A DNA stretch of 64,000 bases from a virus, in the IMG/VR virus record IMGVR_UViG_3300034105_002232. The stretch is one strand, 5' to 3'. Below the pieces are notes generated by a model. That model searched no databases and had not been told where the DNA came from. It saw nothing but the letters and a program-made list of their open reading frames with translations. This document shows positions 11,609 to 35,960 of this stretch, piece after piece. A program made the translations under genes and the position numbers. The first letter of the stretch is position 1, and the number at the start of each line of letters is the position of its first letter.

Positions 11609-11623
11609 CCTACATTTAATTCA

Positions 11624-11938
11624 ATGAGCAATATTAATCTTTTAGTTGATGAAATCCGGCTGGCAACGGATTATCAAATTAATAAACGAATCCTACGCGA
11701 AAAGATTCAGACTGACTTGCATTTAACTCACAACGGTGGGCTATTTAAAATAACACCGGAGCTACTTGGTTTTGTAAAAACATGGCCCGTGGATGAGATC
11801 TATCTGGAAGATGTTTACCAAAATCCTGTGCAAATTGACAAGCAAATTTTTCTTGTTACCGCACAACAACACTATCAACAAGTGATGAATCGTTGGCACA
11901 ACGAACATGAAGAACTTAAAAAGATCAGAAAAATCTAA
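11624..11938 (+). CDS. Hypothetical protein
   Basis: 104-aa ORF downstream of the promoter, overlapping the next gene. Confidence 0.7.
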   Translation: MSNINLLVDEIRLATDYQINKRILREKIQTDLHLTHNGGLFKITPELLGFVKTWPVDEIYLEDVYQNPVQIDKQIFLVTAQQHYQQVMNRWHNEHEELKKIRKI

Positions 11939-12692
11939 AGGTATTGTGGCATTTGCTAACAATACAGCTGAGGTAAACTATAAAAAAATTGCTCAACAAA
12001 CATTGAGCGTAGCCAGTCATGTGTTAAAATTGCCGTATACTGTAATATCATCTGATGATTCTGCGTTTGAAAATACAAGGTATGACATAGATACAGAACA
12101 GTTTACACAGTGGCGCAACAATGATAGATATCGTGCTTATGAACTGAGTCCTTATGATGAGACCCTGGTAATTGATGCGGACTATTTGGTACTGGATCGT
12201 AATTTGCTATCAATATTTGACCAACCCTGGGATTATTTGTTACAAAGGCACAGTCATTCATTGGTGCAGCCAATGCCGGCAGATATGGGTCCTAACAGTT
12301 TACCGTATGTATGGGCAACAGTTTTTGCATTTAGGAAAACGCCACGAGCACGATTGTTCTTTGAGTTGGTTGGACGAGTACAAAACAATTATGGATACTA
12401 CCAAGCTTTGTTTAACATGCAAGAAAGAAACTATCGCAATGATTATGCATTTGCAGTAGCAGATACTATCCTGAACGGATACGCCATTGGTACAAACAGT
12501 ATTCCTGGCATCATGCTCAACGTAGACCAAGTGATTGAGTCTATTACTGTCAATCAACATCAAGTAATTGTTAAAGATGCCAACAAAGCATACGTTGCGC
12601 CACGGACCAATCTGCATTTAATGGGCAAAGCCTATCTACAAAGTAGTAAGTTTCAACAACTGGTGGAACAGTTAGTCAATGAGCCAACATAA
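11907..12692 (+). CDS. GT-A-fold glycosyltransferase-like protein
   Basis: SPYDETLVIDADY (DxD), YRNDYAF, LHLMGK; paralogue of the 12679 ORF. Confidence 0.65.
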   Translation: MKNLKRSEKSKGIVAFANNTAEVNYKKIAQQTLSVASHVLKLPYTVISSDDSAFENTRYDIDTEQFTQWRNNDRYRAYELSPYDETLVIDADYLVLDRNLLSIFDQPWDYLLQRHSHSLVQPMPADMGPNSLPYVWATVFAFRKTPRARLFFELVGRVQNNYGYYQALFNMQERNYRNDYAFAVADTILNGYAIGTNSIPGIMLNVDQVIESITVNQHQVIVKDANKAYVAPRTNLHLMGKAYLQSSKFQQLVEQLVNEPT

Positions 12693-13521
12693 AGAACAAC
12701 AAGGATTTGTTACTATTGCAGCCAACACTGCCAAGACTGATTATCTCCGACTTGCCTACTTGCAGGCATTGAATGTCAAAGCGACTCAAAAGATCAATAA
12801 GTTTGCAGTCATTGTTGATGCTGCTACTGCAACTCAAGTGCAGGACTATCATCGCACAGTGTTCGATTATGTAATTGAAGTACCCAGCAGTGTCACTGGT
12901 CCGTTTGGATTAGAGCCACTGGCATTTTGGTCAACACCCTTTAAAGAAACTATCAAATTAGAAAGCGATTTACTGTTCACTAGAAGTGTGGACCATTGGT
13001 GGACAACTTTTAGATTGCGTGACATTGTCATGAGTACTGGATGTCAGACTTACCAACAGCAGCCGGCTGGTAGCCGGCGTTATAGAAAATTGTTTGACGA
13101 CAATCACTTACCAGATGTGTATACTGGACTGATGTATTTTAGGTTTAGTCAAACTGCTGCTAATTTTTTTAGAACAGCAAAACAGGTATTTGAACAATGG
13201 CCCACAGTGAGAAACTTGTTGCTAGGTTGCAACGATCAATATGCTACCACTGATGTTGCATATGCCATTACTGCCAATATAATAGGCCCAGAATTGTGCA
13301 CCGTGCCCAGTGCAGATTTTGTAAATTTTGTACACATGAAACCCAGCATAAACGGATACGACGAAACAGCGTCGTTCCAAGATGTTTATGTGACTGAATT
13401 TGATCAGGGCATGATCAGAATTAACAATATCAACCAATACCATCCTGTACACTACCATGATAAGAATTTTGCAACGGAGGCGCTGATTGACCACTTTAGA
13501 TCCTTGGCAAGAGTTCGTTAA
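12679..13521 (+). CDS. GT-A-fold glycosyltransferase-like protein
   Basis: TPFKETIKLESDLL (ExD variant), VYTGLMYF, TTDVAY, FVHMK, VHYHDK. Confidence 0.6.
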   Translation: MSQHKEQQGFVTIAANTAKTDYLRLAYLQALNVKATQKINKFAVIVDAATATQVQDYHRTVFDYVIEVPSSVTGPFGLEPLAFWSTPFKETIKLESDLLFTRSVDHWWTTFRLRDIVMSTGCQTYQQQPAGSRRYRKLFDDNHLPDVYTGLMYFRFSQTAANFFRTAKQVFEQWPTVRNLLLGCNDQYATTDVAYAITANIIGPELCTVPSADFVNFVHMKPSINGYDETASFQDVYVTEFDQGMIRINNINQYHPVHYHDKNFATEALIDHFRSLARVR

Positions 13522-13870
13522 AGCATTTGAGTTAGTTGCTGAGTACGACCGGCAACGTCCTGTTATTGTAAAAGAATACAGATTATACTATAACAATGAT
13601 GGGTCTGTTATTGGTCTTTGGGAAAGCCATCATCCCGAAGGCAGCAATTATATTGTGTTAACAGACCCAGATATATTTCACAGAACACCAACCAATCTGA
13701 TACAAGTGGTTAACAACGAATTAAAAGTACTTGACCCACAACCGGTTCATCGTGTAAAATTAACAAAAGCCAATGCCGGCCAACGTGTGGTAAAAGGTCA
13801 TGCAGCACTGGCACTAACAATCAAAGAAGAATACTCACAGACAGAATATTATGGCCGAACGAATACTTGA
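13487..13870 (+). CDS. Hypothetical protein
   Basis: 127-aa ORF overlapping both neighbours. Confidence 0.6.
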   Translation: MTTLDPWQEFVKAFELVAEYDRQRPVIVKEYRLYYNNDGSVIGLWESHHPEGSNYIVLTDPDIFHRTPTNLIQVVNNELKVLDPQPVHRVKLTKANAGQRVVKGHAALALTIKEEYSQTEYYGRTNT

Positions 13871-14780
13871 TGTAGCAGATTTAGATTGTATCTTCCTTAC
13901 CTACGACGAACCCAAAAAAGAAGAGTTTTGGATCAAGATACAAAACATGACGCCTTGGGCAAAACGTGTCGATGGAGTCAAAGGCAGCGATGCCGCGCAC
14001 AAAGCTGCGGCAGCAGCCAGCGATACAGAATGGTTTGTGTTAATTGACGGGGATAATCTGCCTGATGCTGCCTTCTTTAATCTACAATTAAAGATTAAAC
14101 CAGAACAAGAAGGTGGCGCATTCAGATGGAAGGCACGCAATATTATCAATGGCCTGCGCTATGGTAACGGTGGACTAAGTTGTTGGAGTCGCGAATTTGT
14201 AAACAACATGCGCACACACGAGGCCAGCAATGGCAGTGACGAAACTGCTGTGGAGTTTTGTTTTGACCCAAAGTACTTTGCCATGCACAACTGTTACAGT
14301 ACAACATACCCCAATGGCAGTGCCAAACAGGCCTGGCGAGCAGGATTTAGAGAAGGGGTCAAGATGTGTCTGGATCGTGGCTCCAGAATCACCCTAGAAG
14401 AATTTAAAGATAGGGTCAATGGTCGTAATTACGACCACTTGTGTATTTGGCAAAGTGTGGGTGCTGATGTGGAAAATGGTCATTGGGCCATGTATGGTGC
14501 TAGACTGGGTGCATTCATGATCATGTTAGAAGGATGGGACCACAAGTACGTACAAGATTTTGACATGCTGGAACAGTTGTGGGATATGTTCAGCAAAGAG
14601 GATCCCAAAGAAGGGTGTAAGCAGATTGAAGAGTCATTAACCAAGCGACTTGGTTTACCCATTGTTATATATACGTCAGAACAGAGTCGTTTCTTCAAAC
14701 ACCATTACAGTACTGGTCAACGTAACAGTGAGATTATGATGACAGAAATTGACGTTATTAGAAAGATCGAAGGATGGTAG
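13851..14780 (+). CDS. GT-A (GT2-like) glycosyltransferase
   Basis: DCIFLTYDEP, RVDGVKGSDAAHKAAA, WFVLIDGDN (DxD), YGNGG, AWRAGFREGVK. Confidence 0.7.
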   Translation: MAERILDVADLDCIFLTYDEPKKEEFWIKIQNMTPWAKRVDGVKGSDAAHKAAAAASDTEWFVLIDGDNLPDAAFFNLQLKIKPEQEGGAFRWKARNIINGLRYGNGGLSCWSREFVNNMRTHEASNGSDETAVEFCFDPKYFAMHNCYSTTYPNGSAKQAWRAGFREGVKMCLDRGSRITLEEFKDRVNGRNYDHLCIWQSVGADVENGHWAMYGARLGAFMIMLEGWDHKYVQDFDMLEQLWDMFSKEDPKEGCKQIEESLTKRLGLPIVIYTSEQSRFFKHHYSTGQRNSEIMMTEIDVIRKIEGW

Positions 14781-14804: not shown

Positions 14805-15758
14805 ATGAATACATTTGTTTTAATTACAACAAACGATAAGATTTGGAACATTAAAGAATTTTATTCTTTTCTATTAGATAATCAGAATAAATCAATAAAA
14901 ATTATTCTTAACCCAGAAGCTGCATGCTTAGAATATTTGCAAGTATATGATATTTTAGACAAATTTTCTTTTCAATCAGTAACAATTAACACCTCAAATC
15001 TATTAGAACGTCATAATTTTTATAAAATTGCAATCAATAAACCATATTATTATGCAGAGGAGATTCCACGTCATGTAGAAAATTTATTTCATTCTTGGAA
15101 TGGTAAAAAAATTTTTTTGTGTCTTTACGGAAGGCCCTCGGCCAATAGACTAGGTTTTATTTCTTATTTAAATAGGCATCATCAAAATCTGGCTCATTTA
15201 TCCTGTCACGGCAATTCTTTTAACGATGTGGATCGTACTTTTTTTGAACTAGAAAAACTATATCGATACCGTGCAGAATCATTGGTTGATTTTGGGGAAA
15301 TTGCAACTAATTTTCCGTTATTACTCAACAAAGCGTCTAAGTATTCTAATATTGTATATGATTATGCTGATACCATAATAACATTTTACAAGGATATTTT
15401 TGTTGATTTAGTTAGCGAAACTTTCTTAGAAGGAAATGTTTTTTTTCCTACTGAAAAAACATTTAGGCCCATGCTACTAAAAAAACCTTTTATAATTATG
15501 GGACCAAAAAATTATATGATATATTTGCGACAAATGGGCTTTCAAACTTTTTATGAATATTGGGACGAAGATTACGACGGGTATAGTCCTAGTATTAAAT
15601 TTAAAAAAATTCTAGATGTAATTAATAATCTGTCAGGCAAGTCCGTAGATGAACTAGTTAATATGTACGAGTCAATGCAAAATATACTTGACCATAATTA
15701 TAATTTAATAACATCTAATAGCTTTCAGCGCAAAATAAGGTTAGTTAATGACAAGTAA
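14805..15758 (+). CDS. TEK(T/I)-motif protein, putative GT-B-like glycosyltransferase (AT-rich)
   Basis: FLCLYGRPSANR...DLVSET...FPTEKTFRPMLLKKPFIIMG...LRQMGFQTF..YWDEDYD; paralogues at 17134, 29020 and 58671. Confidence 0.55.
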   Translation: MNTFVLITTNDKIWNIKEFYSFLLDNQNKSIKIILNPEAACLEYLQVYDILDKFSFQSVTINTSNLLERHNFYKIAINKPYYYAEEIPRHVENLFHSWNGKKIFLCLYGRPSANRLGFISYLNRHHQNLAHLSCHGNSFNDVDRTFFELEKLYRYRAESLVDFGEIATNFPLLLNKASKYSNIVYDYADTIITFYKDIFVDLVSETFLEGNVFFPTEKTFRPMLLKKPFIIMGPKNYMIYLRQMGFQTFYEYWDEDYDGYSPSIKFKKILDVINNLSGKSVDELVNMYESMQNILDHNYNLITSNSFQRKIRLVNDK

Positions 15759-17133
15759 AAGTGACTTTATGTCTGCAGCAGAGCAGATGAAGCAAAAACT
15801 AGGCAAAGGCACCTGCTTGGCCAAATGGCAGCAAGTGAGTTTGCACCTGACAACCGGTCTTAATAACAGTTGTTACCATCCACCGTTGCACGAAATAGAT
15901 GCTGCGCTATTAAAAGATAATCCTGGTGCGTTACACAACACCGCGCATAAAAAAGAGCAGCGTAAAATTATGTTACGCAATGAGCGTCCACAAGAATGCA
16001 GTTATTGTTGGAACATGGAAGATCTAGGCCAGTTAAGCGATAGGCATTATCGTAGTGGCGAGCCCTGGGCAGCTGAACACTTTGATGCAATCACAAACTC
16101 AACAGGAGATGAAGATGCTGTTCCTTCCTATGTGGAAGTTAATTTTAATCATGCTTGCAACCTTCGCTGTAGTTACTGCAGTCCGCAGTTTAGTTCATCG
16201 TGGGAAGACGAAATCCAGCGATGGGGAGCCTACCCTACTAGCGAACCTCATAATGACCCGAGCCATTTTAATGGTCGTCGCAAGCCTATACCTGTTCGTG
16301 CTGACAACCCCTATGTAGATGCATTTTGGGAATGGTGGCCCACTCTCTATCCAAAACTAAAACATTTTAGGATGACTGGTGGCGAGCCATTAATGGATCG
16401 TAATACCTTCAAAGTATTTGATTATGTGTTGGCTTTTCCTAATCCTGAACTGCACATTGATGTTACCAGTAACTTTAGTGTAGACGAAAAGTTATGGCAA
16501 AAATATTTTGAGTACGTGTCCAAGTTATGCAATACACAAATTGAACACTTCATGCAGTATGTTAGTTTGGATTCTGGCATCAGGCAGCATGCCGAGTATA
16601 TTCGACATGGTATGGACTTTAATCGGGTACTAGCAAGAGTTGAATTTTTCTTAAGGCACATTCCGCACTGTAATAGTTTGACATTTATTATTACCATGAA
16701 TAATCTAAGTGTGTTGGGATTAAAACAACAACTAGAAATTATTCTGGCTTTGCGGAGATATCACAGTACAACATACCAACGTGTATGGTTTGATACTCCG
16801 CTGTTACGTACTCCGTCATGGCAGAGTCTACAGATACTTCCACCGGTGTATGCACAAAGATTAACCGACGTAGCAGACTGGATGGAAGCTAATTTAGAAA
16901 CAGCAGATCGCCCATTCCAAGGATTTAAGGATTACGAAGTGCAACGCATGCGCCGCACTATAGATTGGATGCAAGAAGGTAGCAATTTGGATCCTGACTA
17001 TGTTACACTACAACGTGCTGATTTTTATAGATTCTTCAACGAACACGACAAACGTAGGAACACCAACTTTACAGAAACATTTCCAGAAATGCGAGAGTTC
17101 TGGAACGAATGTCGATACCATGCACAAAATTAA
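15748..17133 (+). CDS. Radical SAM protein with N-terminal Twitch/SPASM-like Cys cluster
   Basis: CNLRCSYC, TGGEP; N-terminal CLAKW..SCYH..CSYCW. Confidence 0.9.
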   Translation: MTSKSDFMSAAEQMKQKLGKGTCLAKWQQVSLHLTTGLNNSCYHPPLHEIDAALLKDNPGALHNTAHKKEQRKIMLRNERPQECSYCWNMEDLGQLSDRHYRSGEPWAAEHFDAITNSTGDEDAVPSYVEVNFNHACNLRCSYCSPQFSSSWEDEIQRWGAYPTSEPHNDPSHFNGRRKPIPVRADNPYVDAFWEWWPTLYPKLKHFRMTGGEPLMDRNTFKVFDYVLAFPNPELHIDVTSNFSVDEKLWQKYFEYVSKLCNTQIEHFMQYVSLDSGIRQHAEYIRHGMDFNRVLARVEFFLRHIPHCNSLTFIITMNNLSVLGLKQQLEIILALRRYHSTTYQRVWFDTPLLRTPSWQSLQILPPVYAQRLTDVADWMEANLETADRPFQGFKDYEVQRMRRTIDWMQEGSNLDPDYVTLQRADFYRFFNEHDKRRNTNFTETFPEMREFWNECRYHAQN

Positions 17134-18168
17134 ATGACAACATATTTTATTGGAACAACATTTGGGACTAATAGCCAATGGCACACCAACGAAGTGCTGG
17201 CTATTGATCACTTAAAGGCACAGATTAATAAAAAATTTCCTACAGCAGAGAATTTAATAATTAATACAACTTGGTTTGGTCCGCAATTTGACAACGGGCA
17301 ATATAAAAAATTAAACAAATTTGAGCATATTGATAATTTGTTTTTTATTACATTAGTTGATGAAATAATGTTAACTCATGATCAAATTGAGAACATTAGA
17401 AAAAAATTTAATGCCTCTCTTTTTTTAATAGGAAATTATGATTCTCCGTATGAAGTTAGTTTTATTTCAACAGTAATACCGGACTATTTTAAAGATTATA
17501 ATGACGCAGATTTATTAATAAAAGACATAAAGTACTTGTACCTTTGTTATAATCGTAAGCCAAGGGAACACCGAGTTAAGCTAGTGAAACAGTTGATTGA
17601 CTATGACTTGGTCAGACACGGTCTTGTTACATTAGGTAAAAACGATAAATTGTATAGCAAAGTTGAATATGCACCAAGTTTTCTATTGGGTGAACAGCCG
17701 GATGATTTTGCCAATGAGGGAAACTGGGGGATGGCAATGTCGTACGGAATACCCCACGACATACACAGTCTTGGGAACATGGACATATGGCAAAATCACT
17801 TTTTAAATATAATCAGCGAAACTACATTTAATCCCTGGGATCATACGTTTGTGACAGAAAAAACATGGAAGCCCATAATTGGATTGAGACCGTTTATCAT
17901 TAATGGATCATCCAAGTTATACTTGTGGCTAAGAAATCGGGGATTTAGAACTTTTGAGAAATACTTTAACAATATTCTAATAGAAGATATCCCCGAATAT
18001 GAAGTTCATAATTCAATTATAAAAGTTGTACAACACCTTGCTAGTCTTGATAAACACAAATTGATGAATATGTACAATGACATGTTGCCAGATCTAATGT
18101 ATAATAGAACTCGTTTTTTAGAATTTTCTAAAGAGCAAAAGATTAAACTAACAAATTTATTTACATGA
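17134..18168 (+). CDS. TEK(T/I)-motif GT-like protein
   Basis: YLCYNRKPREHR...NIISET...VTEKTWKPIIGLRPFII.G...LRNRGFRTF. Confidence 0.55.
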   Translation: MTTYFIGTTFGTNSQWHTNEVLAIDHLKAQINKKFPTAENLIINTTWFGPQFDNGQYKKLNKFEHIDNLFFITLVDEIMLTHDQIENIRKKFNASLFLIGNYDSPYEVSFISTVIPDYFKDYNDADLLIKDIKYLYLCYNRKPREHRVKLVKQLIDYDLVRHGLVTLGKNDKLYSKVEYAPSFLLGEQPDDFANEGNWGMAMSYGIPHDIHSLGNMDIWQNHFLNIISETTFNPWDHTFVTEKTWKPIIGLRPFIINGSSKLYLWLRNRGFRTFEKYFNNILIEDIPEYEVHNSIIKVVQHLASLDKHKLMNMYNDMLPDLMYNRTRFLEFSKEQKIKLTNLFT

Positions 18169-18821
18169 ACAAGTACATGGTATATTGTTGTGCAGGCACA
18201 GGCGGATTATTTTTGACTTCGGTGATAGCTAATTTTTTAGGAATGACAGTAAAACCAAATTTTTCTAGCACCGGACATAGTCATGACCAAGGCTACGGTA
18301 ACTGGAAAGGTGCCAACCGTGTTGTTAATTTTATTGGTGATTATTGGAGCAATCTTCGGCGCGGCTACCCAATTTTTAATGCACATTACGGACCTATTAG
18401 AGATTTTAAGAAGTCGCAAAAAAATTTAAAAGTCATTAGTATCAAGATGTATCCCGATGATTATTATGATGTAACTAAACTCTTTGTTTGCAAAGCTTGG
18501 CCCGACATATTAACAGAGCAAGAATATGCAAATCAAAAAGGTGTTGATTGGCCGGACTATAGCACTAATATAATTGCTGAATCAGAAATAGTAAGGACAG
18601 ACCTAATCAATCACTTATTATTAAAGATTACGGACTGGGACAAAAATTATGACAGAGAAGTAGTTGATTACAATATTAATTTTAAAACAGTGATGGGATT
18701 AGATAATGCATCACTGGCAGATACAGTTTCTGATATTTTACAAAAACCTGTAACAGATGAGATACAAAAATTAATTAATGAGTATCAGCAGTTGAATAAA
18801 AGATTGTACTTTAATAGTTAA
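18165..18821 (+). CDS. Hypothetical protein, possible sulfotransferase-like fold
   Basis: N-terminal YCCAGTGGLFLTSVI resembles the 34330 ORF (HFAPGARGDFLSSVL); contains GVDWPDY. Confidence 0.45.
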   Translation: MNKYMVYCCAGTGGLFLTSVIANFLGMTVKPNFSSTGHSHDQGYGNWKGANRVVNFIGDYWSNLRRGYPIFNAHYGPIRDFKKSQKNLKVISIKMYPDDYYDVTKLFVCKAWPDILTEQEYANQKGVDWPDYSTNIIAESEIVRTDLINHLLLKITDWDKNYDREVVDYNINFKTVMGLDNASLADTVSDILQKPVTDEIQKLINEYQQLNKRLYFNS

Positions 18822-18857: not shown

Positions 18858-20210
18858 ATGTCAAGACTTAATAACGAAACATATCTAGAGTATAAGCACA
18901 GAATAATTGACATCAAGTCAGACAGTTTCTGTGGAGCAAAATGGTATAACGCTACTATATGGTTAGGCAGCGGCATGACCACAAGTTGCCATCATCCATT
19001 GCCACATGCAATTGATATTGAGAAAATAAAAACAAACCCCAGTGCATTACACAATACTGATCAAAAGAAATCAGAACGTGCTCAGATGCAAAAAGGACAC
19101 AGACCTTCTGGCTGCGAATACTGCTGGAAAATAGAAGACATTGGGCGCGACAACATCAGTGATCGGGTGTACAAAACAATAATTTATTCTGATCAGGATC
19201 TAGATCGTGCATACAACACTAACCCAATCAACGATGTTAATCTTCGCACTCTTGAAATCAGTTTTGATCGTACTTGTCAGTTCGCTTGCAGTTATTGCAA
19301 TCCTGCATTCAGTAGTACTTGGGTTCGAGATATCAACACCAACGGACCCTACATTAACTTGATTTCAGACGGCAGGAATCATTTTACTCACACTCATGAC
19401 AGTGCTCAACTGTATAAATTTGGTGAAACTAACCCATATGTGGAGGCATTCTTTGCGTGGTGGGAAAGCGACCTCCATAACACACTAGACGAACTACGCA
19501 TCACTGGCGGTGAGCCTTTGCTGTCAGGATACACCTGGCAACTGTTAGATTGGTTCAAGAACAACAAAGGCAAAAGTAAAACTCGTCTGGCCATCAACAG
19601 CAACCTTGGTACACAGGTAGATGTGGTCCGATTGTTTGACAGCGTAGACCAACCCATTGACATATATACCAGTAACGAAGCAACAGGATTACAAGCTGAA
19701 TATGTACGAGATGGCTTGGTATGGGACGACTGGGCAAACAAAGTAGAACTGATTTTAAATAACCACCAGTCCAAGTTGCGCGGCTTGCACGTCATGTGTA
19801 CTATCAATGCATTATGCCTGGACAGTTTGGTAGACTTTCTTGAGTGTGTAGTAAATTGGAAACTAGAATACGGACGAGATGCTGTTAATATCTCACTAAA
19901 TATATTACGCTTTCCAAGTTTTCAATCTGCATTAGTATTGCCTGACCAGTTACGGACCCGATACAAAGATCAACTGTCACAGTTTATGGCCATGCATGAA
20001 GGTCACAGCTACCTTCATGAACATGAGTGGAACCAATTGCAGCGTTTAGTTGATTATTTAGATGTGGTTAAAACTCCGCACAGCGAAGCATTTGATTTAC
20101 CCAAGTTACGCAATGACTTCAAACAGTTCTATCAACAATACGATCAACGTCGTAATAAAAATTTCATACAAACATTTCCTGCATTAGCAAATTGGTACAA
20201 TACATTATGA
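18858..20210 (+). CDS. Radical SAM protein with N-terminal Twitch/SPASM-like cluster
   Basis: CQFACSYC, TGGEP; CGAKW..SCHH..CEYCW; close paralogue of 15748. Confidence 0.9.
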   Translation: MSRLNNETYLEYKHRIIDIKSDSFCGAKWYNATIWLGSGMTTSCHHPLPHAIDIEKIKTNPSALHNTDQKKSERAQMQKGHRPSGCEYCWKIEDIGRDNISDRVYKTIIYSDQDLDRAYNTNPINDVNLRTLEISFDRTCQFACSYCNPAFSSTWVRDINTNGPYINLISDGRNHFTHTHDSAQLYKFGETNPYVEAFFAWWESDLHNTLDELRITGGEPLLSGYTWQLLDWFKNNKGKSKTRLAINSNLGTQVDVVRLFDSVDQPIDIYTSNEATGLQAEYVRDGLVWDDWANKVELILNNHQSKLRGLHVMCTINALCLDSLVDFLECVVNWKLEYGRDAVNISLNILRFPSFQSALVLPDQLRTRYKDQLSQFMAMHEGHSYLHEHEWNQLQRLVDYLDVVKTPHSEAFDLPKLRNDFKQFYQQYDQRRNKNFIQTFPALANWYNTL

Positions 20211-25985: not shown

Positions 25986-26061
25986 TAGAATTAAACTAGA
26001 AATTAAATATCGGCGTAAGCTACGTGAGCTACGCAAACGAGATCCATTTATTTACAAATGA
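25960..26061 (+). CDS. 33-aa basic microprotein ending RDPFIYK (not in the ORF track)
   Basis: ATG 25960 with SD AAGGA upstream; MNWLQNIYNRIKLEIKYRRKLRELRKRDPFIYK; its TGA overlaps ATG 26058 and it fills the gap exactly. Confidence 0.75.
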   Translation: MNWLQNIYNRIKLEIKYRRKLRELRKRDPFIYK

Positions 26062-28662: not shown

Positions 28663-29120
28663 AAGATAAATTTAAACGTGCCTACATGCAGACTGCACAA
28701 ACATTTGCTGGGTTAAGCAGTGCCCGTAGGTTGCAGGTGGGTGCTATTGTGGTCAAGGATGATAGAATTATCTCTATTGGATACAATGGTATGCCAGCAG
28801 GCTGGGACAACAACTGTGAAGATGAAACAACGGACACTTACTCAGAATTTGAAGGTGCTATACATAGGGTTAAATTAAAAACCAAATCTGAAGTTCTTCA
28901 TGCTGAAACCAATGCCATTGCCAAGTTGGCAAAATCAAACGAAAGCGGTAACAACGCTGCCTTGTTTGTTACTCATGCACCTTGCCTGCAGTGTGCCAAA
29001 TTGATATACCAATCAGGTATTAGTCATGTATACTATGGTGCAAATTATCGTGATGATTCAGGACTAGTGTTTCTGAAGAAGTCTGGGGTAACACTTGAGC
29101 AGTTGCCAGCTGAAGATTAA
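28659..29120 (+). CDS. dCMP deaminase
   Basis: VGAIVVKD.RIISIGYNG, HAETNAI, PCLQC zinc motifs. Confidence 0.93.
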   Translation: MKDKFKRAYMQTAQTFAGLSSARRLQVGAIVVKDDRIISIGYNGMPAGWDNNCEDETTDTYSEFEGAIHRVKLKTKSEVLHAETNAIAKLAKSNESGNNAALFVTHAPCLQCAKLIYQSGISHVYYGANYRDDSGLVFLKKSGVTLEQLPAED

Positions 29121-30216
29121 CGACTAGTTCGTCCCAGCATTGATCTAAGAATTGTTTATTATAGAACCAGTTATAATTGTAATCTAATACTTCTTGCATT
29201 TCCGTTAGGATTTCTTCAAGACGCTCGTTACTCATTGCACAAATGTCGTTGATAATTTTAACAACTGCTTGTAATCGTTGTATGGGGTCTTGTATGGTGT
29301 CGTAACTTTCATCCCACCAGGCCCTGAATGTTTTAAATCCATAGCTGCGTAGATATTCAAGATTATGAGCACATGCCAGTAACAAAAATGGTTGCTTGGT
29401 AATAATAGGTTTAAATATTTTTTCTGTCAGGTGTTTTTTGGTATCCCAATAACACGTTTCTGTTACTACATACAAGAAACTTTCCATGCATTCTTCAATA
29501 GCATTGATACGCATACTGTCGTTTTCAATAAACTGATTATGTTTTTGATCAATACGCAATGGAAAGTCAATTTGGTCTAATTGGTGTCTAGCGTTTAATA
29601 CATATTCAGCTGATACATTGTGTGTAGTTATCGAAGCAAGTATATTTTCCTCGTAATATCCATGTTCGGGACAAACATCGCTGTAACTAACATGTCCGTG
29701 TTCGAGCAGTTTATTTTTTTGAAGTTCGGCAACAAAAAAACTACGATATACTCTAGCATTACCAGTTAGGCGGTTGAACGTAATATATTTTTTTGTAATA
29801 GTTCTATCTTTTGGGTTTGTGATTGCCAAATTATACTGATACCCTCGAAACCAATCATGCGCTGCAAACACATGATGAAAATAATACACAATTGGCCAAC
29901 CATATTTTTCTTGGATTTCTGTCAGAGTTGGATTATCTTTTTCAGTCGTTACTAATATATGTGGTGGTTGAAAATTATTTTTTATGTGATCAAACAATGT
30001 ATAATTATAATTGCCGTATATGGGTTCTTGGTCGTAGAATACAAACATAGGTCCGTCTTTAATAAAGCCACTGAATTTTGAAATATTATCGGCTGAGCGT
30101 TCAATATTTTCTGGTTGAGTTGAGCCGTATGGGTATAGGTAAATTAACCTACGATGTGTTACAATATCCTTTAATGCATAGAATAAAGTTTCGTAATGAC
30201 TGTGAATATTATACAT
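29020..30216 (-). CDS. TEK(T/I)-motif GT-like protein
   Basis: YITFNRL...YVVTET...HLTEKIFKPIITKQPFLL...LRSYGFKTF..WWDESYD. Confidence 0.65.
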   Translation of the reverse strand: MYNIHSHYETLFYALKDIVTHRRLIYLYPYGSTQPENIERSADNISKFSGFIKDGPMFVFYDQEPIYGNYNYTLFDHIKNNFQPPHILVTTEKDNPTLTEIQEKYGWPIVYYFHHVFAAHDWFRGYQYNLAITNPKDRTITKKYITFNRLTGNARVYRSFFVAELQKNKLLEHGHVSYSDVCPEHGYYEENILASITTHNVSAEYVLNARHQLDQIDFPLRIDQKHNQFIENDSMRINAIEECMESFLYVVTETCYWDTKKHLTEKIFKPIITKQPFLLLACAHNLEYLRSYGFKTFRAWWDESYDTIQDPIQRLQAVVKIINDICAMSNERLEEILTEMQEVLDYNYNWFYNKQFLDQCWDELVVNLQLATAQVLPQTSSETLVLNHHDNLHHSIHD

Positions 30217-33200
30217 GTTTGATGTTTTTTATTTTGGGCCTAAGCCTGGTAGATTTGCGCACGAACAACCTGCTACAAGTTTAGAGGATGCTGCTGACAA
30301 GAGCCGCACTGGACTCTACTGGTATATTTATGGAGGCAACGATTACTCAAATTTTGATTTTAATTTTGTGCCAGCGCCCTGGGAAGCAAACCAAACACAT
30401 GTATGGGCCAATCAATGGCAACCCAATGGCGAAGTGTATTTGGCCAATAAACACAATACACAATTGGTTTACAATTACAGAACAGAATACCCAGTACATC
30501 GACTGCCAATAATAGACTGTTATTCTATCCCTGAACATGTTGATAGAAACAGTATTGACTGGCGCTGGTGCCCAGATCCAGCATCGCCCCCATACATTTA
30601 TGTATTTGGTAATCAATGGAATTTAGCGGTGCGTGAGCCAACTGTAACATACACAGTGCCTGGCGCTACACAATATAAATTTGTAGAAGATAGGCCTGTA
30701 CAAGTGTTGCCAGTAATGGATCAGTGGAACATATTAGATGATATAGAATATTTTGATTTTTCCTGGCGTCCCAATCCTACAGATCCTCCTTATCGCTATG
30801 TGTTTGGCAATCAATGGTTGGCACCAGAATTGAGACCTGCACTGGAGTACGTGGTTGGTAACGCCACAGAAACAAAGTACATGGACTACCCCAAGGCTAC
30901 TAGAATCAGTCAGCCTAACAAGTTTACAATTGTGCATGCAGCCAGCTTTGACTTTAGCTGGGAACCAGATCCTGGTGATCCACCTTACGTCTATGTGTTT
31001 GGTAATCAGTGGTATCCTGCAGAGGTTATGCCTACAGTAGAATATGCAGTTGCAGGCGCAACTGAACGCAAGTTCCTGGATTATCCCAGAGCACAATTGC
31101 CAGAACGACATAATAACCATTGGCACACATTGATAGACTGTGAATGGGATTACAGTTGGGTTCCAGATCCTGGTGATCCACCTTACATCTATGTGTTTGG
31201 TAATCAGTGGCACGCTGCAGAAATCATGCCCACAGTAGAATACCATGTGCTGGGTGCAGTTGAACGCAAGTACCTGGAATATCCCAAGGCTGCATTGTTG
31301 TCAATGCCGGAACGGTGGTGTGTGCCTGAAGAAATTAATGTAGACAACATTGACTTTACCTGGCATCCGCATCCAGCTGATTGTTTTGTACATCACTTTG
31401 GCAGTCAATATCAAAAGAGCACTGGACTAACATATACCACTCCTGGTGCAACAGAAATTAAACTGGAATACGAATTACCAATCAAGCAGAAAGGCCAAAG
31501 TACAATTGTCGTGCTAGATATCTTTTTTGTTGATAAGGGTAACTCATTATCTGCAGTACGGTTTGAACAACTACAACAACGTTTTCCTGCTGCACAAAAG
31601 ATCAGATACGCCAACAGCATGTTAGAAACTGTGCGTCGTTGTGTTACTAGAACCAGCACAAACAAATTCTGGGTTATTAGCAGCGAAAATGTTTACAGTG
31701 AGTTTGATTTTGCATGGCATGCCGAGCCGTGGCAAAGCTACATGACGCACATATTTGGCAGCCAATGGCAAAAATGGTCTGACACATATCTTGTCAACAA
31801 ATGGGAGTTTGAAAGACATGCTAAATGGGCTACGTCTCTAGAACAGTTTCCTAGTTTGAACTTTGTTAACAATCAAACTGTACACAGACCCGATGATCTA
31901 CATGACATCTACTATGTTGATCATAACAATGCCAACCATCAATTGGCCTGGATGCAGCAACGGCATCCTGATATTAAAGTTACTCGCTTTGTTGATAATT
32001 ATTTAGACACGTTCAAACGTGTAATGACGACGGCTACAACTGAATACGTTTGGATTACCAGCAGCATTTGCAATTACACCAAATTTGATTTTTCCTGGCA
32101 ACCCGAACCGTGGCAAAAGGAAATGATTCACGTGTTTGGCAGCAGCAGCCAACGTCGCGGAGATACTTTTTATATACATGTGGAATCGTTTAAGACACAG
32201 ATGTATGAATTAGAAATGCTGGATTGGTTTAATGTGATCAACTATTGCCAAGAACAATTGGTAGATCGACTGCCTGCTCCTGTGGTACAATTTGCCCAAG
32301 ACAGCATTGTGCCTGCAGTACAAGCATATCAGTTTGATTTTCCATACGCAGTGTTTACCAATCAAAGCACAGCACCGTCAAACGCCCAGGATCTTTGTTT
32401 GTGGCATGCAAAAGACCGTGTAGCTGAGGCAATTACACGCAACGGGGCTACTACGATAGTGCCTAGAGAAATCAAGGCACATTTGCGTACACAATTATAT
32501 GATTACCCTTATGTAAACCGCAAAAATCCTCATTATGTGACTGAAAATCCCCTGGATACTATCTTCATTAGTAATGGTGAGCCCAATGAAGAACTAATGT
32601 TCCATCACACCAAATACATGGCCAATAGTAATGTAAAATGGATACGTGGAGTCAATGGTCGTACGGCAGCGTATCAAGCGGCAGCTCGTGCAAGTACCAC
32701 GCCCTGGTTTTTTGCTGTATTTGCCAAACTAGAAGTAATGGGAGGAAGTTTCCCTTGGTATACATGGCAACCAGATTATTGGCAAGAGCCCAAACATTAT
32801 ATCTTTAATGCACAGAATCCTGTTAACGGATTAGAGTACGGACACCAAGGCATGATTGCGTATAACAAGAATCTAGTATTAGCAAATAACAATCCTGGTA
32901 TTGATTTTACTCTAAGTCAGCCACACGAAAGTGTGCCTGTACTAAGTGGTATAGCACGATTCAATCAAGACCCTTGGATGACCTGGCGTACAGCATTCCG
33001 TGAAGTTGTTAAACTAAAACACTTTATGGCCACGCAACCTACGTTAGAAACTGAACATAGATTAACCACTTGGTTAACTGTGGCACATGGTGATCATGCG
33101 GAATGGTGTTTGCGTGGTGCAGCTGACGCTGTTGCTTACTATGAGGAGGTGGGTGGTGATTACAATCTGCTGATGCTGAGTTTTGATTGGGCTTGGTTAC

Positions 33201-33232
33201 AAATCAAATTTATTCAGTATAGTAATTCTTGA
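30215..33232 (+). CDS. 1005-aa multi-module protein: four degenerate GT-A-like modules plus about 66-aa W-P-rich repeats
   Basis: Repeats W.PDP.DPPY.YVFGNQW; C-terminal module paralogous to the 13851 ORF (DTIFISNGEP, GVNGRTAAYQAAA, NPVNGLEYG, TWRTAFREVVK) but lacking DxD. Confidence 0.7.
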   Translation: MFDVFYFGPKPGRFAHEQPATSLEDAADKSRTGLYWYIYGGNDYSNFDFNFVPAPWEANQTHVWANQWQPNGEVYLANKHNTQLVYNYRTEYPVHRLPIIDCYSIPEHVDRNSIDWRWCPDPASPPYIYVFGNQWNLAVREPTVTYTVPGATQYKFVEDRPVQVLPVMDQWNILDDIEYFDFSWRPNPTDPPYRYVFGNQWLAPELRPALEYVVGNATETKYMDYPKATRISQPNKFTIVHAASFDFSWEPDPGDPPYVYVFGNQWYPAEVMPTVEYAVAGATERKFLDYPRAQLPERHNNHWHTLIDCEWDYSWVPDPGDPPYIYVFGNQWHAAEIMPTVEYHVLGAVERKYLEYPKAALLSMPERWCVPEEINVDNIDFTWHPHPADCFVHHFGSQYQKSTGLTYTTPGATEIKLEYELPIKQKGQSTIVVLDIFFVDKGNSLSAVRFEQLQQRFPAAQKIRYANSMLETVRRCVTRTSTNKFWVISSENVYSEFDFAWHAEPWQSYMTHIFGSQWQKWSDTYLVNKWEFERHAKWATSLEQFPSLNFVNNQTVHRPDDLHDIYYVDHNNANHQLAWMQQRHPDIKVTRFVDNYLDTFKRVMTTATTEYVWITSSICNYTKFDFSWQPEPWQKEMIHVFGSSSQRRGDTFYIHVESFKTQMYELEMLDWFNVINYCQEQLVDRLPAPVVQFAQDSIVPAVQAYQFDFPYAVFTNQSTAPSNAQDLCLWHAKDRVAEAITRNGATTIVPREIKAHLRTQLYDYPYVNRKNPHYVTENPLDTIFISNGEPNEELMFHHTKYMANSNVKWIRGVNGRTAAYQAAARASTTPWFFAVFAKLEVMGGSFPWYTWQPDYWQEPKHYIFNAQNPVNGLEYGHQGMIAYNKNLVLANNNPGIDFTLSQPHESVPVLSGIARFNQDPWMTWRTAFREVVKLKHFMATQPTLETEHRLTTWLTVAHGDHAEWCLRGAADAVAYYEEVGGDYNLLMLSFDWAWLQIKFIQYSNS
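30555..31460 (+). repeat. Tandem about 198-bp (66-aa) coding repeats, 4 clear copies plus 1 degenerate
   Basis: CCAGATCCTGGTGATCCACCTTAC.TCTATGTGTTTGGTAATCAGTGG recurs at 30965 and 31163 (198-nt period); weaker copies near 30572 and 30770. Confidence 0.85.
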
Positions 33233-34328
33233 TGACTGCAACTACAGTTTCTACTTCAGCATCAGACAGTTCAGGATAGATAGGCAAACTCAGGCACTCT
33301 TTGGTAAACGAGTTGGTTTCTGTGTACACATCCTTGGTGTAGTCAATATAACTGGCTCCAACTCCTAGATCGTACAACGCATAATCATAGTGTATTTTGC
33401 TTTCAATGCCATGCCAACTTAATTTTGCTTGTAAGGCTGTTCGATCATGTGTGCGAATTACAAATTTATGCCAGGCATGAACCACATCCTTGTTTGGGGT
33501 TAATGTATCCACGTACTGATACAACTCTTGCATGTAGTATTCGGCGATCTTGGTTCTGCGCCGCTGCCACGAATCAAAGTGATTGAGTTTGACCAACATC
33601 TGAGCTGAATCAGACTCACTCATTTTGCTGTTGGTTCCTGGGGTGTCGTTGTGATAAAGATAGGTTACAGGTCTACCGTTGTCGCGCAGACCTTTTACTG
33701 TGTTGACAATGTGCAGATCATCTGTCAAAATCATTCCTCCTGACCCATAGTTGCCCAAGTTCTTGGTTGGATCAAAACTCAACACGCTGATGTCACCCAT
33801 CTTGCCACTGGGTATGCCTCGGTAACTGGCACCAAAACTTTGTGCTGCGTCTTCGATGATCACAAGATCATCATTAAAGAATCTAGTTTGTATTTGGAAC
33901 CGATCCCAATCTACACAGTTTCCAAACAAGTTCACGTACATAACAGCACCAACAGTGCGATCAAGCTTGTGTTGGCATGAATCTAAATCCATCAGACCAT
34001 TGTGATCTACGTCACAGAACACAGGAGTAAATTTGTTCATGAGTACACTGTTGATAGTGGCTACAAAACTCACTGTGGGTATTAGTACAGAATATGGAGG
34101 TCTGGCCAGACTGGCCAATTGTGCAAAGATTAATGCTTGGGTACCCGAGTTGACTGCAACAGCAAAAGCTCTATTACATCTGGCAGCAATTGCCTGTTCA
34201 AAATGTTTGGTATACTCTCCATCTAGTACTCGACCTGTGCTGTACACTCGATCTGACGCATCAAGTATTTCGTCTCTTAGGTTTGCATATTGCCGGTCAA
34301 GTCCAAAAAAAGAGATTACAGAGTTCAT
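33210..34328 (-). CDS. DegT/DnrJ/EryC1/StrS PLP-dependent sugar aminotransferase
   Basis: VNSGTQAL, IIEDAAQSFG, SFDPTKNLGNYGSGG, GTNSKM, LSLPIYP; likely start ATG 34328. Confidence 0.93.
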   Translation of the reverse strand: MNSVISFFGLDRQYANLRDEILDASDRVYSTGRVLDGEYTKHFEQAIAARCNRAFAVAVNSGTQALIFAQLASLARPPYSVLIPTVSFVATINSVLMNKFTPVFCDVDHNGLMDLDSCQHKLDRTVGAVMYVNLFGNCVDWDRFQIQTRFFNDDLVIIEDAAQSFGASYRGIPSGKMGDISVLSFDPTKNLGNYGSGGMILTDDLHIVNTVKGLRDNGRPVTYLYHNDTPGTNSKMSESDSAQMLVKLNHFDSWQRRRTKIAEYYMQELYQYVDTLTPNKDVVHAWHKFVIRTHDRTALQAKLSWHGIESKIHYDYALYDLGVGASYIDYTKDVYTETNSFTKECLSLPIYPELSDAEVETVVAVIKNYYTE

Positions 34329-34329
34329 T

Positions 34330-34992
34330 TTATTCAATTTCGTTCTTGGCAGATGACTCACTCCAATAATTCTGATACTGTATAAATTTATCAGGTTGGC
34401 TACTATTTAAATAGTCATCAAGAGAAAAACTTCTCTTCCAATTAAATAATCTATTCCTATATTCAAAATCTACTAATTTAGAAAGTTTTAATAAATCCGT
34501 CTCGCTTGTCCATAACTTTTGCGATATAATATTATCATTAATTAGGAATAGGAATTCTTGGTCAATTGGTATGTTATGTATCCTTAGATAAAATTCCTCA
34601 ATAAATTTAAGATCCGACAATAAAGAGAAATCTATGCAATAATTGTAGCTAGTAGTGTCTATTTCTGCAGATTGGTCAGACATGATAAAATTTTTTATAA
34701 ACAAAAAGAACTGATCTAAAAAAGAAGTTTCTAAGACTATAGTATTTTTTAAATAATGATTATATGCAATTTGCATTATATTATTAATATTATAATTACA
34801 ATTAATTCTAATTCGTATATAATTACTGTAATTGTTGTTAATTACAGATTGATCATTGATATGGTGTATTTTAACATAATTTGGAGGATTAAGTGCTCCA
34901 AATTCTCTTGGTCGCCAATTATCTTTTAATACCGAAGACAAAAAATCGCCGCGAGCACCTGGTGCAAAATGTATTAGAAGCTTAACATCCAT
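34330..34992 (-). CDS. Hypothetical AT-rich protein (possible sulfotransferase-like)
   Basis: LIHFAPGARGDFLSSVL; visibly very AT-rich insert. Confidence 0.5.
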   Translation of the reverse strand: MDVKLLIHFAPGARGDFLSSVLKDNWRPREFGALNPPNYVKIHHINDQSVINNNYSNYIRIRINCNYNINNIMQIAYNHYLKNTIVLETSFLDQFFLFIKNFIMSDQSAEIDTTSYNYCIDFSLLSDLKFIEEFYLRIHNIPIDQEFLFLINDNIISQKLWTSETDLLKLSKLVDFEYRNRLFNWKRSFSLDDYLNSSQPDKFIQYQNYWSESSAKNEIE

Positions 34993-35960
34993 TATAATTT
35001 ATTTTGCCAATAAGACGATGATTTAAACCATTCGTAATAACGCCGAAAGCCTTCCTCAACATCAACTGTAGGAGCATAACCGAAGTCTTCTACAGCACTA
35101 GAAATATTTAATCGACCACGTTTGGGAAATGCAAGGTCTCTATCCTGCACTTCAATACTGCCTCGACCGGCAATCTTGATAGCAAGTTCAGCAGCATCTT
35201 TTAATGTATATTGTTGTTTGGCACTGCGTGTGATGTTGTAGATTTTATTATTTGCTTTTTTACTCAAGGTAGCTTGAGCGATTCCCATTGCAGCATCTTC
35301 TACATAAGTGAAGTCTAGTACTTCACTGGCACCTTTAACTCTGAGTGTTTCTCCACGCATGGCACCAAGCATGAACTTGCTTACCACACGATCCTCAACG
35401 TCGTATTCACCATACACAGCACTGGGACGAATAATTATATATTCGAATCCATGTTGCCGAGCATAATCTTCCACCAGCTTCTCGCCCATGTATTTCATTA
35501 TGCCGTACTGTCCAACTGGATTACATACAGCATCTTCGGTTACGTCAGAATCAAAGTTGCCGTACACCATGCTGCTGCTGATATACACAAACTTTTTTAC
35601 TTTGTGTATTACCGCTGCTTCGAGCAAGTTGATCAGACCAGTTACCATGGTCTGACTGGCAGTAACAGGGTCCTGTTGCACAACCTTTTGTCTCGGAAAA
35701 CTGGCAAGATGCACAATGGTTTTAATATTGAAAGTACCAACGAAAGAATTAATTTGTTGGGTGTTTCGGATATCAGTCACATGTGGAATAATATTCATAC
35801 GCTTGCTGCGCTCATTGAACAAATATTCTTGTTCGGCTTGCGGTACAAACCCGTAATTGGTTCTACTGTCAATACCAAAGCATTCATGACCTGCTTGTTC
35901 AAGAAAACGGACAACATTGTGCCCAATAAAACCAGCAGCCCCGGTTACAAGTATTTTCAT
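34992..35960 (-). CDS. NAD-dependent nucleotide-sugar epimerase/dehydratase
   Basis: ILVTGAAGFIG, VHLAS, YISSSMVYG, YGIMK (YxxxK), DFTYVED. Confidence 0.93.
   Translation of the reverse strand: MKILVTGAAGFIGHNVVRFLEQAGHECFGIDSRTNYGFVPQAEQEYLFNERSKRMNIIPHVTDIRNTQQINSFVGTFNIKTIVHLASFPRQKVVQQDPVTASQTMVTGLINLLEAAVIHKVKKFVYISSSMVYGNFDSDVTEDAVCNPVGQYGIMKYMGEKLVEDYARQHGFEYIIIRPSAVYGEYDVEDRVVSKFMLGAMRGETLRVKGASEVLDFTYVEDAAMGIAQATLSKKANNKIYNITRSAKQQYTLKDAAELAIKIAGRGSIEVQDRDLAFPKRGRLNISSAVEDFGYAPTVDVEEGFRRYYEWFKSSSYWQNKL

Follow-up and report, generated by a model that had tools for sequence, protein, structure and literature searches.

What does a phage make with 24 kb of sugar-modifying genes placed directly behind its tail fibres, and where does the product end up? 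The question is raised by IMG/VR virus record IMGVR_UViG_3300034105_002232, of which a stretch of 64,000 nt was analysed (the window); the genes concerned occupy positions 11624-35960 (the block). An earlier reading of the same DNA, made from its letters alone (the original prediction), had described the block as a glycan synthesis and tailoring region fused to the tail-fibre module and as a candidate virion glycosylation system. That the phage encodes a cytoplasmic pathway for glycan synthesis and tailoring is well supported by the family matches of its enzymes, by the lack of membrane segments in its proteins and by a gene order that is kept in 80/80 related loci and three complete genomes, and the product is probably a tailored glycan or glycoside. 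The favoured explanation for its destination, put forward tentatively, is that the product ends on virion proteins, the acceptor being one of the structural proteins that the phage encodes in the adjacent baseplate/fibre module. Family membership, conservation, gene order, solubility and a separate promoter are established; every reaction, the order of the steps and the acceptor are what we infer.

At its upstream end, the window contains a giant virion structural protein (>2,184 aa, PHROG 10938) and, beside it, a 232-aa protein whose homologues are annotated as structural or baseplate proteins in jumbo myoviruses of ~350-490 kb (Atu_ph07, Munch and 7t3). Collagen-like and other fibre genes come next, up to base 11552. 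The block itself (Table 1, in which genes can be found by the lower coordinate used to name them here) consists of twenty-one plus-strand genes between 11624 and 29120, with ends that overlap or almost abut, followed downstream of 29120 by one minus-strand gene, a gene for a 1005-aa protein and a minus-strand trio that extends to 35960. Thymidylate synthase and dihydrofolate reductase (DHFR) genes lie directly beyond. The original prediction had listed three GT-A-like glycosyltransferases, three TEK(T/I) glycosyltransferase-like genes, five radical S-adenosylmethionine (SAM) enzymes, two SGNH enzymes, an O-carbamoyltransferase, an adenosine 5'-phosphosulfate (APS)-kinase-like gene, a DegT aminotransferase, an NAD epimerase and a 1005-aa pseudo-glycosyltransferase. 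All of these genes are present where it had placed them, and to them are now added a dCMP-deaminase-like gene (28659), a sulfotransferase-like gene (18165), a conserved 398-aa gene (24017) and a hairpin with a promoter at the boundary to the fibre genes.

All five radical SAM enzymes lie above the curated whole-protein cut-off (170 bits) of the NCBIfam model NF033640, N_Twi_rSAM, with scores of 280-393 bits. When aligned, they display four invariant N-terminal cysteines, followed by the CxxxCxxC motif (C163/C167/C170) and GGEP, and thus the same succession of N-terminal four-Cys auxiliary domain and CxxxCxxC motif as NF033640. In 20192, Pfam SPASM is matched at residues 49-113 (2e-14), upstream of Radical_SAM at 158-322, and a profile of the five N-terminal domains matches the C-terminal twitch domain of BtrN over ~80 residues (E 4e-4). 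The family is expanded in these phages, with 8-11 genes over the cut-off per related phage genome compared with none in 14 control genomes. Relatives of 18858 are found on >599 IMG/VR contigs, the best 80 being 65-77% identical, and a search with another radical SAM enzyme of the block matched 6,774 database proteins. Literature and database searches found NF033640 catalogued only, with no characterised member or reaction. In the related genome G001, N_Twi genes stand again beside TEK genes at two further loci, one with short-chain dehydrogenase/reductase (SDR) genes and the other with an SGNH gene, and this recurrence indicates that the N_Twi and TEK families work together.

The three predicted GT-A-like transferases are likewise borne out, two being glycogenin/GT8-like (11907 and 12679) and one GT2-like (13851). 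The first two are paralogues (hhalign 99.2%), with D90, D92 and Y93 invariant in the family of 11907 and K93, E95 and D97 in that of 12679, whose profile matches the structure of glycogenin-1 across residues 4-112, the nucleotide-binding half (E 1.2e-4). Neither gave a match at E <= 0.01 to Pfam, including Glyco_transf_8, and both are therefore termed GT8-like rather than members of that family. The gene at 13851 is the most conserved outside the radical SAM set (59-81% identity to 26 aligned homologues). Its AlphaFold2 (AF2) model is of moderate confidence (pLDDT 75); residues 5-157 match the GT-A fold at a moderate Z of 7-7.8 (<8), and the top matches are all GT-A enzymes or sugar nucleotidyltransferases, including PBCV-1 A64R and Mimivirus R655/R699. 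It has no Pfam Glycos_transf_2 match itself; a paralogous domain, the second copy in P0331, is homologous to 13851 (5e-11), carries D-A-D and scores 25.7 against a cut-off of 23.3. A GT-A domain of the 13851 type is also present in at least 193 longer proteins (P0243-P0361; 544-1221 aa), many of them from marine samples; tandem and fused forms occur, and most are ~875 aa long without any other recognised domain. Together they seem to form a large multidomain family related to the 1005-aa protein.

For the 1005-aa protein itself, the original reading as a pseudo-glycosyltransferase holds in part. Its C-terminal 190-220 residues are GT-A-like (residues 779-968 match the hidden Markov model (HMM) of the 13851 family at 1.5e-15, BLASTP 7e-8), whereas the other three of the four glycosyltransferase-like modules originally read in it went undetected with the family HMM. 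The place of the DxD is taken by FAVFAKL in the window and in all five relatives checked, and the C-terminal domain is thus conserved and GT-A-like but probably non-catalytic. A tandem-repeat search on the gene at the DNA level found nothing. Profile searches against PDB sequences gave nothing credible for the 13851, 24017, TEK and 11907 families.

The TEK genes (14805, 17134 and 29020) do form a real family, but for their nature as transferases the evidence is a GT10-like motif: E-T...T-E-K...P-F-I, which we take to resemble that of GT10 fucosyltransferases. In the Atlas, the named clusters closest to them are those of Glyco_transf_10 (0.79/0.77), which gives no more than a lead. Searched with the TEK alignment, a large protein database yielded 2,138 relatives, none of which has a Pfam domain or an informative name; 31 members compared with Pfam gave noise only, with no Glyco_transf_10, and there was no PDB sequence or NCBIfam match either. 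A fourth TEK gene (58671-59708, minus strand) and an SGNH paralogue (48182-48865, minus strand) are located in the window's other sugar/7-deazaguanine region, so the same enzyme families serve two separate clusters. The minus-strand TEK gene at 29020 and the 1005-aa gene diverge from a single shared CATG (30214-30217), with zero intergenic space.

Most of the remaining assignments concern the decoration of sugars. The O-carbamoyltransferase contains both Pfam domains far above their cut-offs (Carbam_trans_C 1e-48, 165.4 vs 27 bits; Carbam_trans_N 5e-37, 128.5 vs 24 bits) and, with 133.5 bits against the cut-off of 1000 for the NodU equivalog NF041651, is a member of the superfamily and not NodU. 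Both SGNH enzymes retain blocks I, II/III and V (Ser, Gly, Asn, His) as invariant residues; the family profile of the second matches the GDSL structure 4rsh (8e-6), and DUF6071 is found in 17/18 of its members and Lipase_GDSL_2 in 12/18. The predicted APS-kinase-like gene passes the Pfam APS_kinase cut-off, lies below that of NCBIfam adenylyl-sulfate kinase (1e-8, 35 bits, cut-off 127) and is APS-kinase-like only. The putative sulfotransferase 18165, whose Atlas structure has a TM of 0.57-0.62 to Sulfotransfer_1/3 clusters (feature score 0.92), would fit such a kinase. The DegT aminotransferase is unambiguous at the level of Pfam; its NCBIfam match to PseC (1e-49) is below the cut-off of that and every other equivalog, and its gene is 13-23 kb from the radical SAM array in 5/5 large relatives. 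The NAD epimerase of the original prediction belongs to the SDR family, its best NCBIfam matches, dTDP-glucose dehydratase and GalE, being far below their cut-offs. In 4,6-dehydratases, an Asp-Glu pair is carried at the site that reads SSSMVYG in this protein; the pair is not present here, which makes an epimerase or oxidoreductase more likely than an RmlB-type dehydratase. Substrates are not assignable for the carbamoyltransferase, DegT and SDR enzymes because all are below every equivalog cut-off.

Several further proteins accompany these enzymes. The 104-aa product of the block's first gene has ten invariant residues, including Y65, and library family searches with it gave no match. For the 398-aa protein 24017, Foldseek against the PDB found no match to the model and a wide structure search gave a weak cyclophilin-like barrel (Z ~8); in BFVD it is matched solely by uncharacterised phage proteins (E down to 1.7e-22). 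The N-terminus of the variable 34330 protein is weakly like sulfotransferase-like 18165 (BLASTP 6e-4, 56 residues). The deaminase 28659 is probably not part of the pathway. A deaminase 69% identical to it is encoded at another locus in G001, between an N_Twi radical SAM gene and a TEK gene (G001:C1:186013-189433), from which it appears that the deaminase travels with the radical SAM/TEK families and not with nucleotide-metabolism genes.

Table 1. Features of the block and its boundary; fractions are numbers of IMG/VR loci, as defined in the text.
Feature	Position	Strand	Remarks
Boundary element, 71-bp gap between fibre gene and block	11553-11623	+	10+4 bp hairpin and TTTACA-17-TATAAT, -10 in loop
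Conserved 104-aa protein, first gene of block	11624-11938	+	70/80 loci; RsoM2USA homologue ORF354
GT8/glycogenin-like GT-A transferase	11907-12692	+	DxD is D90-A-D92; RsoM2USA ORF353 at 27% identity
GT8/glycogenin-like GT-A transferase	12679-13521	+	E95-S-D97 in DxD position
127-aa protein	13487-13870	+	32/80 loci (~40%); no family match
GT2-like GT-A transferase	13851-14780	+	D66-G-D68 invariant in 27 sequences; 72/80 loci
TEK-family protein	14805-15758	+	E-T...T-E-K...P-F-I motif invariants; candidate GT10-like GT-B enzyme, unproven
N_Twi radical SAM enzyme 1	15748-17133	+	NF033640 304 bits
TEK-family protein, variable among relatives	17134-18168	+	profile match 1e-64; 18/80 loci
Sulfotransferase-like P-loop protein, variable passenger	18165-18821	+	1/80 loci
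N_Twi radical SAM enzyme 2	18858-20210	+	NF033640 287 bits
N_Twi radical SAM enzyme 3	20192-21550	+	NF033640 393 bits
N_Twi radical SAM enzyme 4	21537-22754	+	NF033640 319 bits
N_Twi radical SAM enzyme 5	22747-24045	+	NF033640 280 bits
Conserved 398-aa protein, phage-only fold	24017-25213	+	71/80 loci; AF2 pLDDT 83
SGNH/GDSL-like protein a	25191-25985	+	GDS block I; invariant G7, S9, G40, N43, H239; paralogue of 26058; 27/80 loci
33-aa basic micropeptide ending PFIYK	25960-26061	+	66/80 loci, median 75% identity; also in RsoM2USA module
SGNH/GDSL-like protein b	26058-26630	+	block I is GCSF, not GDSF
NodU/CmcH/TobZ-type O-carbamoyltransferase	26584-28065	+	493 aa; HHLSH metal motif; 46% identity to RsoM2USA ORF199
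Short APS-kinase-like P-loop kinase, 137 aa	28062-28475	+	Pfam APS_kinase 1.2e-7, 32 vs 21 bits, first ~80 residues
dCMP-deaminase-like zinc deaminase	28659-29120	+	Pfam 2e-22; 3/80 loci
TEK-family protein	29020-30216	-	profile match 6e-89; position kept in G001, G003, G004
1005-aa protein	30215-33232	+	about seven (F/W)D(F/Y)xWxPxP...FG(N/S)Q repeats and C-terminal GT-A-like domain without DxD
DegT/PseC/WecE-class nucleoside diphosphate (NDP)-sugar aminotransferase	33210-34361	-	Pfam 3e-77, 260.7 bits; SFDPTK pyridoxal phosphate (PLP)-lysine motif
220-aa variable protein	34330-34992	-	absent from G001, G003, G004; no family match
Extended-SDR NDP-sugar epimerase/oxidoreductase	34992-35960	-	Pfam Epimerase 7e-45; SSSMVYG, YxxxK
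ATAAATA copies	9071-9077, 6617-6623, 25882-25888, 30325-30331(-), 45152-45158(-), 52019-52025(-)

Conservation of the block was assessed in IMG/VR loci, the best 80 of the >599 contigs with a relative of 18858. In all 80 fetched loci, the order is kept: fibre genes, the 104-aa gene, two GT8-like genes, the optional 127-aa gene, the GT-A gene, variable TEK genes, the radical SAM array, the 398-aa gene, SGNH-micropeptide-SGNH and the carbamoyltransferase. Three complete genomes (G001, G003 and G004; 354-364 kb) are collinear with the window's first 40 kb, including the DegT and SDR genes. This conserved order lies far beyond chance. A megablast of the whole region against phage records gave zero matches. 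More distant evidence is provided by the cultured Ralstonia phage RsoM2USA, in which a unit at 27-37% identity to the block encodes an 11624-like protein (ORF354), two GT8-like proteins (ORF353 and ORF352), an extra ORF (ORF351), a GT-A enzyme (ORF350), an N_Twi radical SAM enzyme (ORF349) and a GT-A-like paralogue (ORF348). The unit is found directly 3' of the genes for a baseplate wedge, a 2,541-aa structural protein, the SDR ORF358 and a fibre-like protein (structural ORFs as in PMC8504454). The RsoM2USA radical SAM-SGNH-micropeptide-SGNH-carbamoyltransferase module is 95 kb from the transferase unit, which therefore stayed with the structural genes through rearrangement. This arrangement suggests a functional tie to the virion and is the best evidence for one here. 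A synteny survey had been proposed in the original prediction as a check on linkage to structural genes; in the survey now run, that linkage holds in 80/80 loci, the three genomes and RsoM2USA. The 'Moraphages' (PMC12619734) were considered as the same lineage and judged not demonstrably so.

Few hints as to the bacterial side emerged. A bacterial-context scan with a single N_Twi protein returned only two short phage-like contigs binned in metagenome-assembled genomes (MAGs), and the homologue search for such context was dominated by phage relatives. In a 2.1-Mb MAG labelled uncultured Polynucleobacter sp. (L097/G006), N_Twi genes over the cut-off are present on contigs C12, C44, C79, C86, C94 and C193, one of these genes sharing 70% identity with that of the window. 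These phage contigs, binned with a Polynucleobacter genome, are either a host hint (Burkholderiales, as for the host of RsoM2USA) or a binning artefact. Stop-codon recoding in the relatives, raised by stops within matches, was rejected, as TAA, TAG and TGA were mixed and located at match edges.

The original prediction had the block fused, or tightly coupled, to the fibre module, and on this point it has to be revised: a hairpin (-16.9 kcal/mol, z -5.83) and a promoter of the block's own (11/12 match in the promoter scan) lie between the two, and relatives with a canonical terminator occur. In relatives, either this design recurs, with a perfect TTGACA, or TATAAT is preceded by a GC-rich hairpin and U-run. 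At 11575-11608, and in the same place in L008, L021, L066, L071 and L074, the promoter is embedded in the hairpin, its -35 just 5' of the stem and its -10 within the loop; the stem sequences differ and complementarity is kept. The element may act as terminator of the fibre transcript and promoter of the block at once. Upstream of the block, a strict sigma-70-like pattern is found in 26/70 relatives and ATAAATA in 2/70, whereas fibre gene 9100 has ATAAATA at -29 and the motif precedes the homologous gene in 35/39 relatives. The motif is depleted in the window (6 copies vs 22.5 +/- 4.5 expected), most copies being upstream of genes in the right orientation, and it also precedes a queD-type operon. 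The T4 late promoter is TATAAATA, and ATAAATA is a candidate T4-like late promoter of this phage clade. On this basis, the fibre genes would be late and the block driven by host sigma-70. Only positionally conserved sites were used as promoter and terminator evidence, since generic counts of both showed no excess over shuffles. Two other copies of the motif lie within genes of the block. Codons AAT-AAA-TAT at 25881-25889 (N231-K232-Y233 of the SGNH protein at 25191-25985) spell ATAAATA 78 nt 5' of the micropeptide; the copy is found at -78 or -81 in 24 relatives, the SGNH gene being present in 27/80 loci at a protein identity of 45-69%, and may serve the micropeptide-SGNH-carbamoyltransferase module as a promoter inside the block. 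The other copy, on the minus strand, is situated upstream of the start of the TEK gene at 29020-30216, 109 nt inside the 1005-aa gene.

How such a pathway could operate can be outlined from the families. It would be soluble and cytoplasmic, with a short glycan first assembled and then heavily edited. The two glycogenin/GT8-like enzymes and the GT2-like GT-A enzyme would move sugars from NDP-sugars, perhaps together with the TEK proteins, whilst an amino sugar would be supplied by the SDR and the DegT aminotransferase. The five N_Twi enzymes would perform radical chemistry at unactivated C-H bonds of the sugars. BtrN converts a sugar-like alcohol into the ketone that is then aminated by an aminotransferase of the DegT family. 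A BtrN-type alcohol-to-ketone oxidation that feeds transamination is the leading guess for the N_Twi reaction, epimerisation and deoxygenation being alternatives. The auxiliary-cluster domain is alike in BtrN (butirosin 2-deoxy-scyllo-inosamine dehydrogenase, PDB 4M7T) and the N_Twi enzymes, although the twitch domain is C-terminal in the former and N-terminal in the latter, and the block has a DegT enzyme but no 2-deoxystreptamine pathway genes. The carbamoyltransferase, its 33-aa partner peptide and the SGNH proteins could add O-carbamoyl groups and add or remove acyl groups, and sulfate would perhaps be added by the APS-kinase-like kinase and the sulfotransferase-like protein. Structural proteins would be glycosylated in the cytoplasm before or during assembly.

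The case for a virion acceptor begins with the compartment. No membrane segment is predicted in any protein of the block (maximum 19-residue Kyte-Doolittle value 1.56), and family scans of the 24 kb found no flippase, polymerase, ligase, priming phosphoglycosyltransferase, lipid-carrier or export genes; an acceptor reachable in the cytoplasm is indicated by their absence. The neighbouring fibre proteins are composed of 28-38% Ser+Thr+Asn, with fibre-like 10602 at 38%, and the nearest folds to the modelled 13851 include virus capsid and fibril glycosyltransferases, which would support the same acceptor. A narrower version, in which the N_Twi enzymes and their TEK partners serially edit, by radical chemistry, a glycan attached to fibre or baseplate proteins of jumbo phages abundant in fresh water, is doubtful. 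A number of points weigh against a virion acceptor. The virion analysis of RsoM2USA covered only ten abundant gel bands, and similar islands have been read in print as modifying the host O-chain (PMC7029224). The block forms a separate transcription unit, set off by a hairpin/terminator and a sigma-70-type promoter, the fibre gene having one of ATAAATA type, and because the promoters differ co-expression with virion proteins is not implied. Synteny within the clade is high genome-wide, so that adjacency to fibre genes has little weight there. No close relative with a characterised function was found for any enzyme of the block; library searches assigned no function to the TEK proteins, and sequence and structure searches none to the 24017 family. 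Of the possible acceptors, virion proteins are nevertheless ranked first, followed by a host envelope glycan, a free or carrier-bound glycoside, protein modified directly and, last, DNA.

The second of these, unlikely as it is, fares best among the alternatives. It holds that a host envelope glycan (lipopolysaccharide (LPS) O-chain, core or capsule precursor) is remodelled from the cytoplasmic face with the help of host carrier lipid and export machinery; receptor masking and a block on superinfection or progeny re-adsorption would be the purpose. Fibre-linked islands of GT8, LPS and radical SAM genes in pelagimyophages and cyanomyophages have been so interpreted (PMC7029224), the sigma-70-type promoter is of the kind found before non-structural genes in the window, and carbamoyltransferases of NodU type are common in the LPS-type gene sets of cyanophages. 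Such remodelling is hard to reconcile with 24 kb that hold no membrane protein, priming phosphoglycosyltransferase, flippase, polymerase or ligase, and the core is highly conserved in phages whose hosts probably differ, although genes for serotype conversion usually vary with the host. The published islands, termed the host recognition cluster (Zaragoza-Solas et al. 2020, PMC7029224), combine GT8, LPS-type sugar genes and radical SAM cassettes and are, like the block, large and placed beside a giant structural protein and tail fibres. The original statement that the block could not be matched to a described system is not supported, since fibre-linked GT8 and radical SAM islands had been described, without mechanism. 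They are, however, hypervariable and belong to T4-like phages of ~150-250 kb, whereas the core of the block is strictly conserved in a lineage of ~355-364 kb whose baseplate protein resembles that of Atu_ph07/Munch-type jumbo phages. No mechanism was proposed in that study for the radical SAM enzymes of the islands. One marine viral genome of T4-like type has been reported to carry 12 radical SAM genes (PMC5332604).

In the third possibility, which is improbable, the phage would make a glycoside, free or bound to a carrier protein and similar to aminoglycosides, nucleoside antibiotics or Nod factors, for host manipulation or competition. The gene types parallel those of aminoglycoside and peptidyl-nucleoside pathways (BtrN with DegT-type enzymes; TobZ) and of Nod-factor decoration (NodU, NodH/NodPQ and NodZ). 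The match to the BtrN twitch domain, a 104-aa protein with an invariant Tyr at the head of the operon beside glycogenin-like enzymes, and a deaminase that travels with the radical SAM/TEK genes all point in the same direction. Family scans, however, found no scaffold-forming enzyme (2-deoxy-scyllo-inosose synthase or NodC-like synthase) and no exporter, such phage-made metabolites have no known precedent, and the position beside structural genes would be left without explanation.

Less probable again is direct action of the radical SAM enzymes on protein or peptide, with cross-links or oxidations introduced into fibre proteins or small ORFs in the manner of ribosomally synthesised and post-translationally modified peptide (RiPP) maturases or anaerobic sulfatase-maturating enzymes (anSMEs), the transferases being a separate matter. 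SPASM/twitch radical SAM enzymes are mostly peptide or protein maturases, and small conserved ORFs (104, 127 and 33 aa) do lie inside the block. The NCBIfam matches to sactipeptide, anSME and mycofactocin maturases are weak, however, and far below cut-offs; no RiPP recognition element was detected in family scans, the fibre proteins are without Cys and, at three different loci, TEK and sugar genes are mixed in among those for radical SAM enzymes.

Finally, hypermodification of phage DNA with a glycosylated or carbamoylated base is very improbable. In its favour, phage glycosyltransferases often act on DNA, genes for a dCMP deaminase, thymidylate synthase and DHFR adjoin, the promoter is of early type, and TEK and SGNH paralogues also belong to a 7-deazaguanine/dpdA-type cluster elsewhere in the window. 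Against it, the thymidylate synthase beside DHFR passes its equivalog cut-off and is genuine, so that thymine is made normally and a hydroxymethyl-pyrimidine substrate is argued against. Family scans of the block found neither a hydroxymethylase nor a domain for DNA binding or base flipping, just 3/80 relatives have the deaminase, and the RsoM2USA transferase unit stays with structural genes.

The tentatively favoured virion acceptor has counterparts in known systems. Virion glycosylation is established for chloroviruses and mimiviruses, and Mimivirus uses a DegT-type aminotransferase. For mycobacteriophages, glycosylation of capsid and tail tube is cited as established (Freeman et al. 2023, cited in PMC12619734). 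In common with the arrangement envisaged here, the mycobacteriophage, PBCV-1 A64R and Mimivirus fibril systems use soluble virus-encoded transferases on virion proteins in the cytoplasm. The likeness of 13851 to PBCV-1 A64R (2p6w) and Mimivirus R655/R699 is a generic GT-A likeness only (Z below 8), and, unlike the block, the mycobacteriophage, chlorovirus and Mimivirus systems are not known to contain radical SAM, carbamoyltransferase or sulfation genes. With NodU/NolO/CmcH/TobZ and the sxtI-J-K-L cassette, the block has in common both carbamoyltransferase Pfam domains, HHxxH, a PFIY-ending micropeptide and SGNH proteins, although its carbamoyltransferase has 493 aa as opposed to ~570 aa in the NodU/NolO/CmcH/TobZ enzymes. 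Taken together, the block represents a glycan-tailoring system of phages that is real, conserved and abundant, and a variant of virus-encoded glycosylation.

The clade that carries it is very common in metagenomes, with >599 IMG/VR contigs and >6,700 proteins related to one or other of the block's radical SAM genes, and each genome devotes ~7% of its length to the block and has 8-11 copies of a radical SAM family without an assigned reaction. A radical-edited virion glycan would be the first radical-SAM-tailored protein glycan, and no earlier system for virion glycosylation would be known from phages that infect Gram-negative bacteria; the N_Twi family of several thousand proteins would also gain its first assigned reaction. 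As the core is present in the cultured Ralstonia phage RsoM2USA, the question of the acceptor is open to bench study. Should the product coat the virion, host range, adsorption and immune or defence recognition would have to be rethought for jumbo phages of Gram-negative bacteria, and new carbohydrate radical chemistry would come to light.

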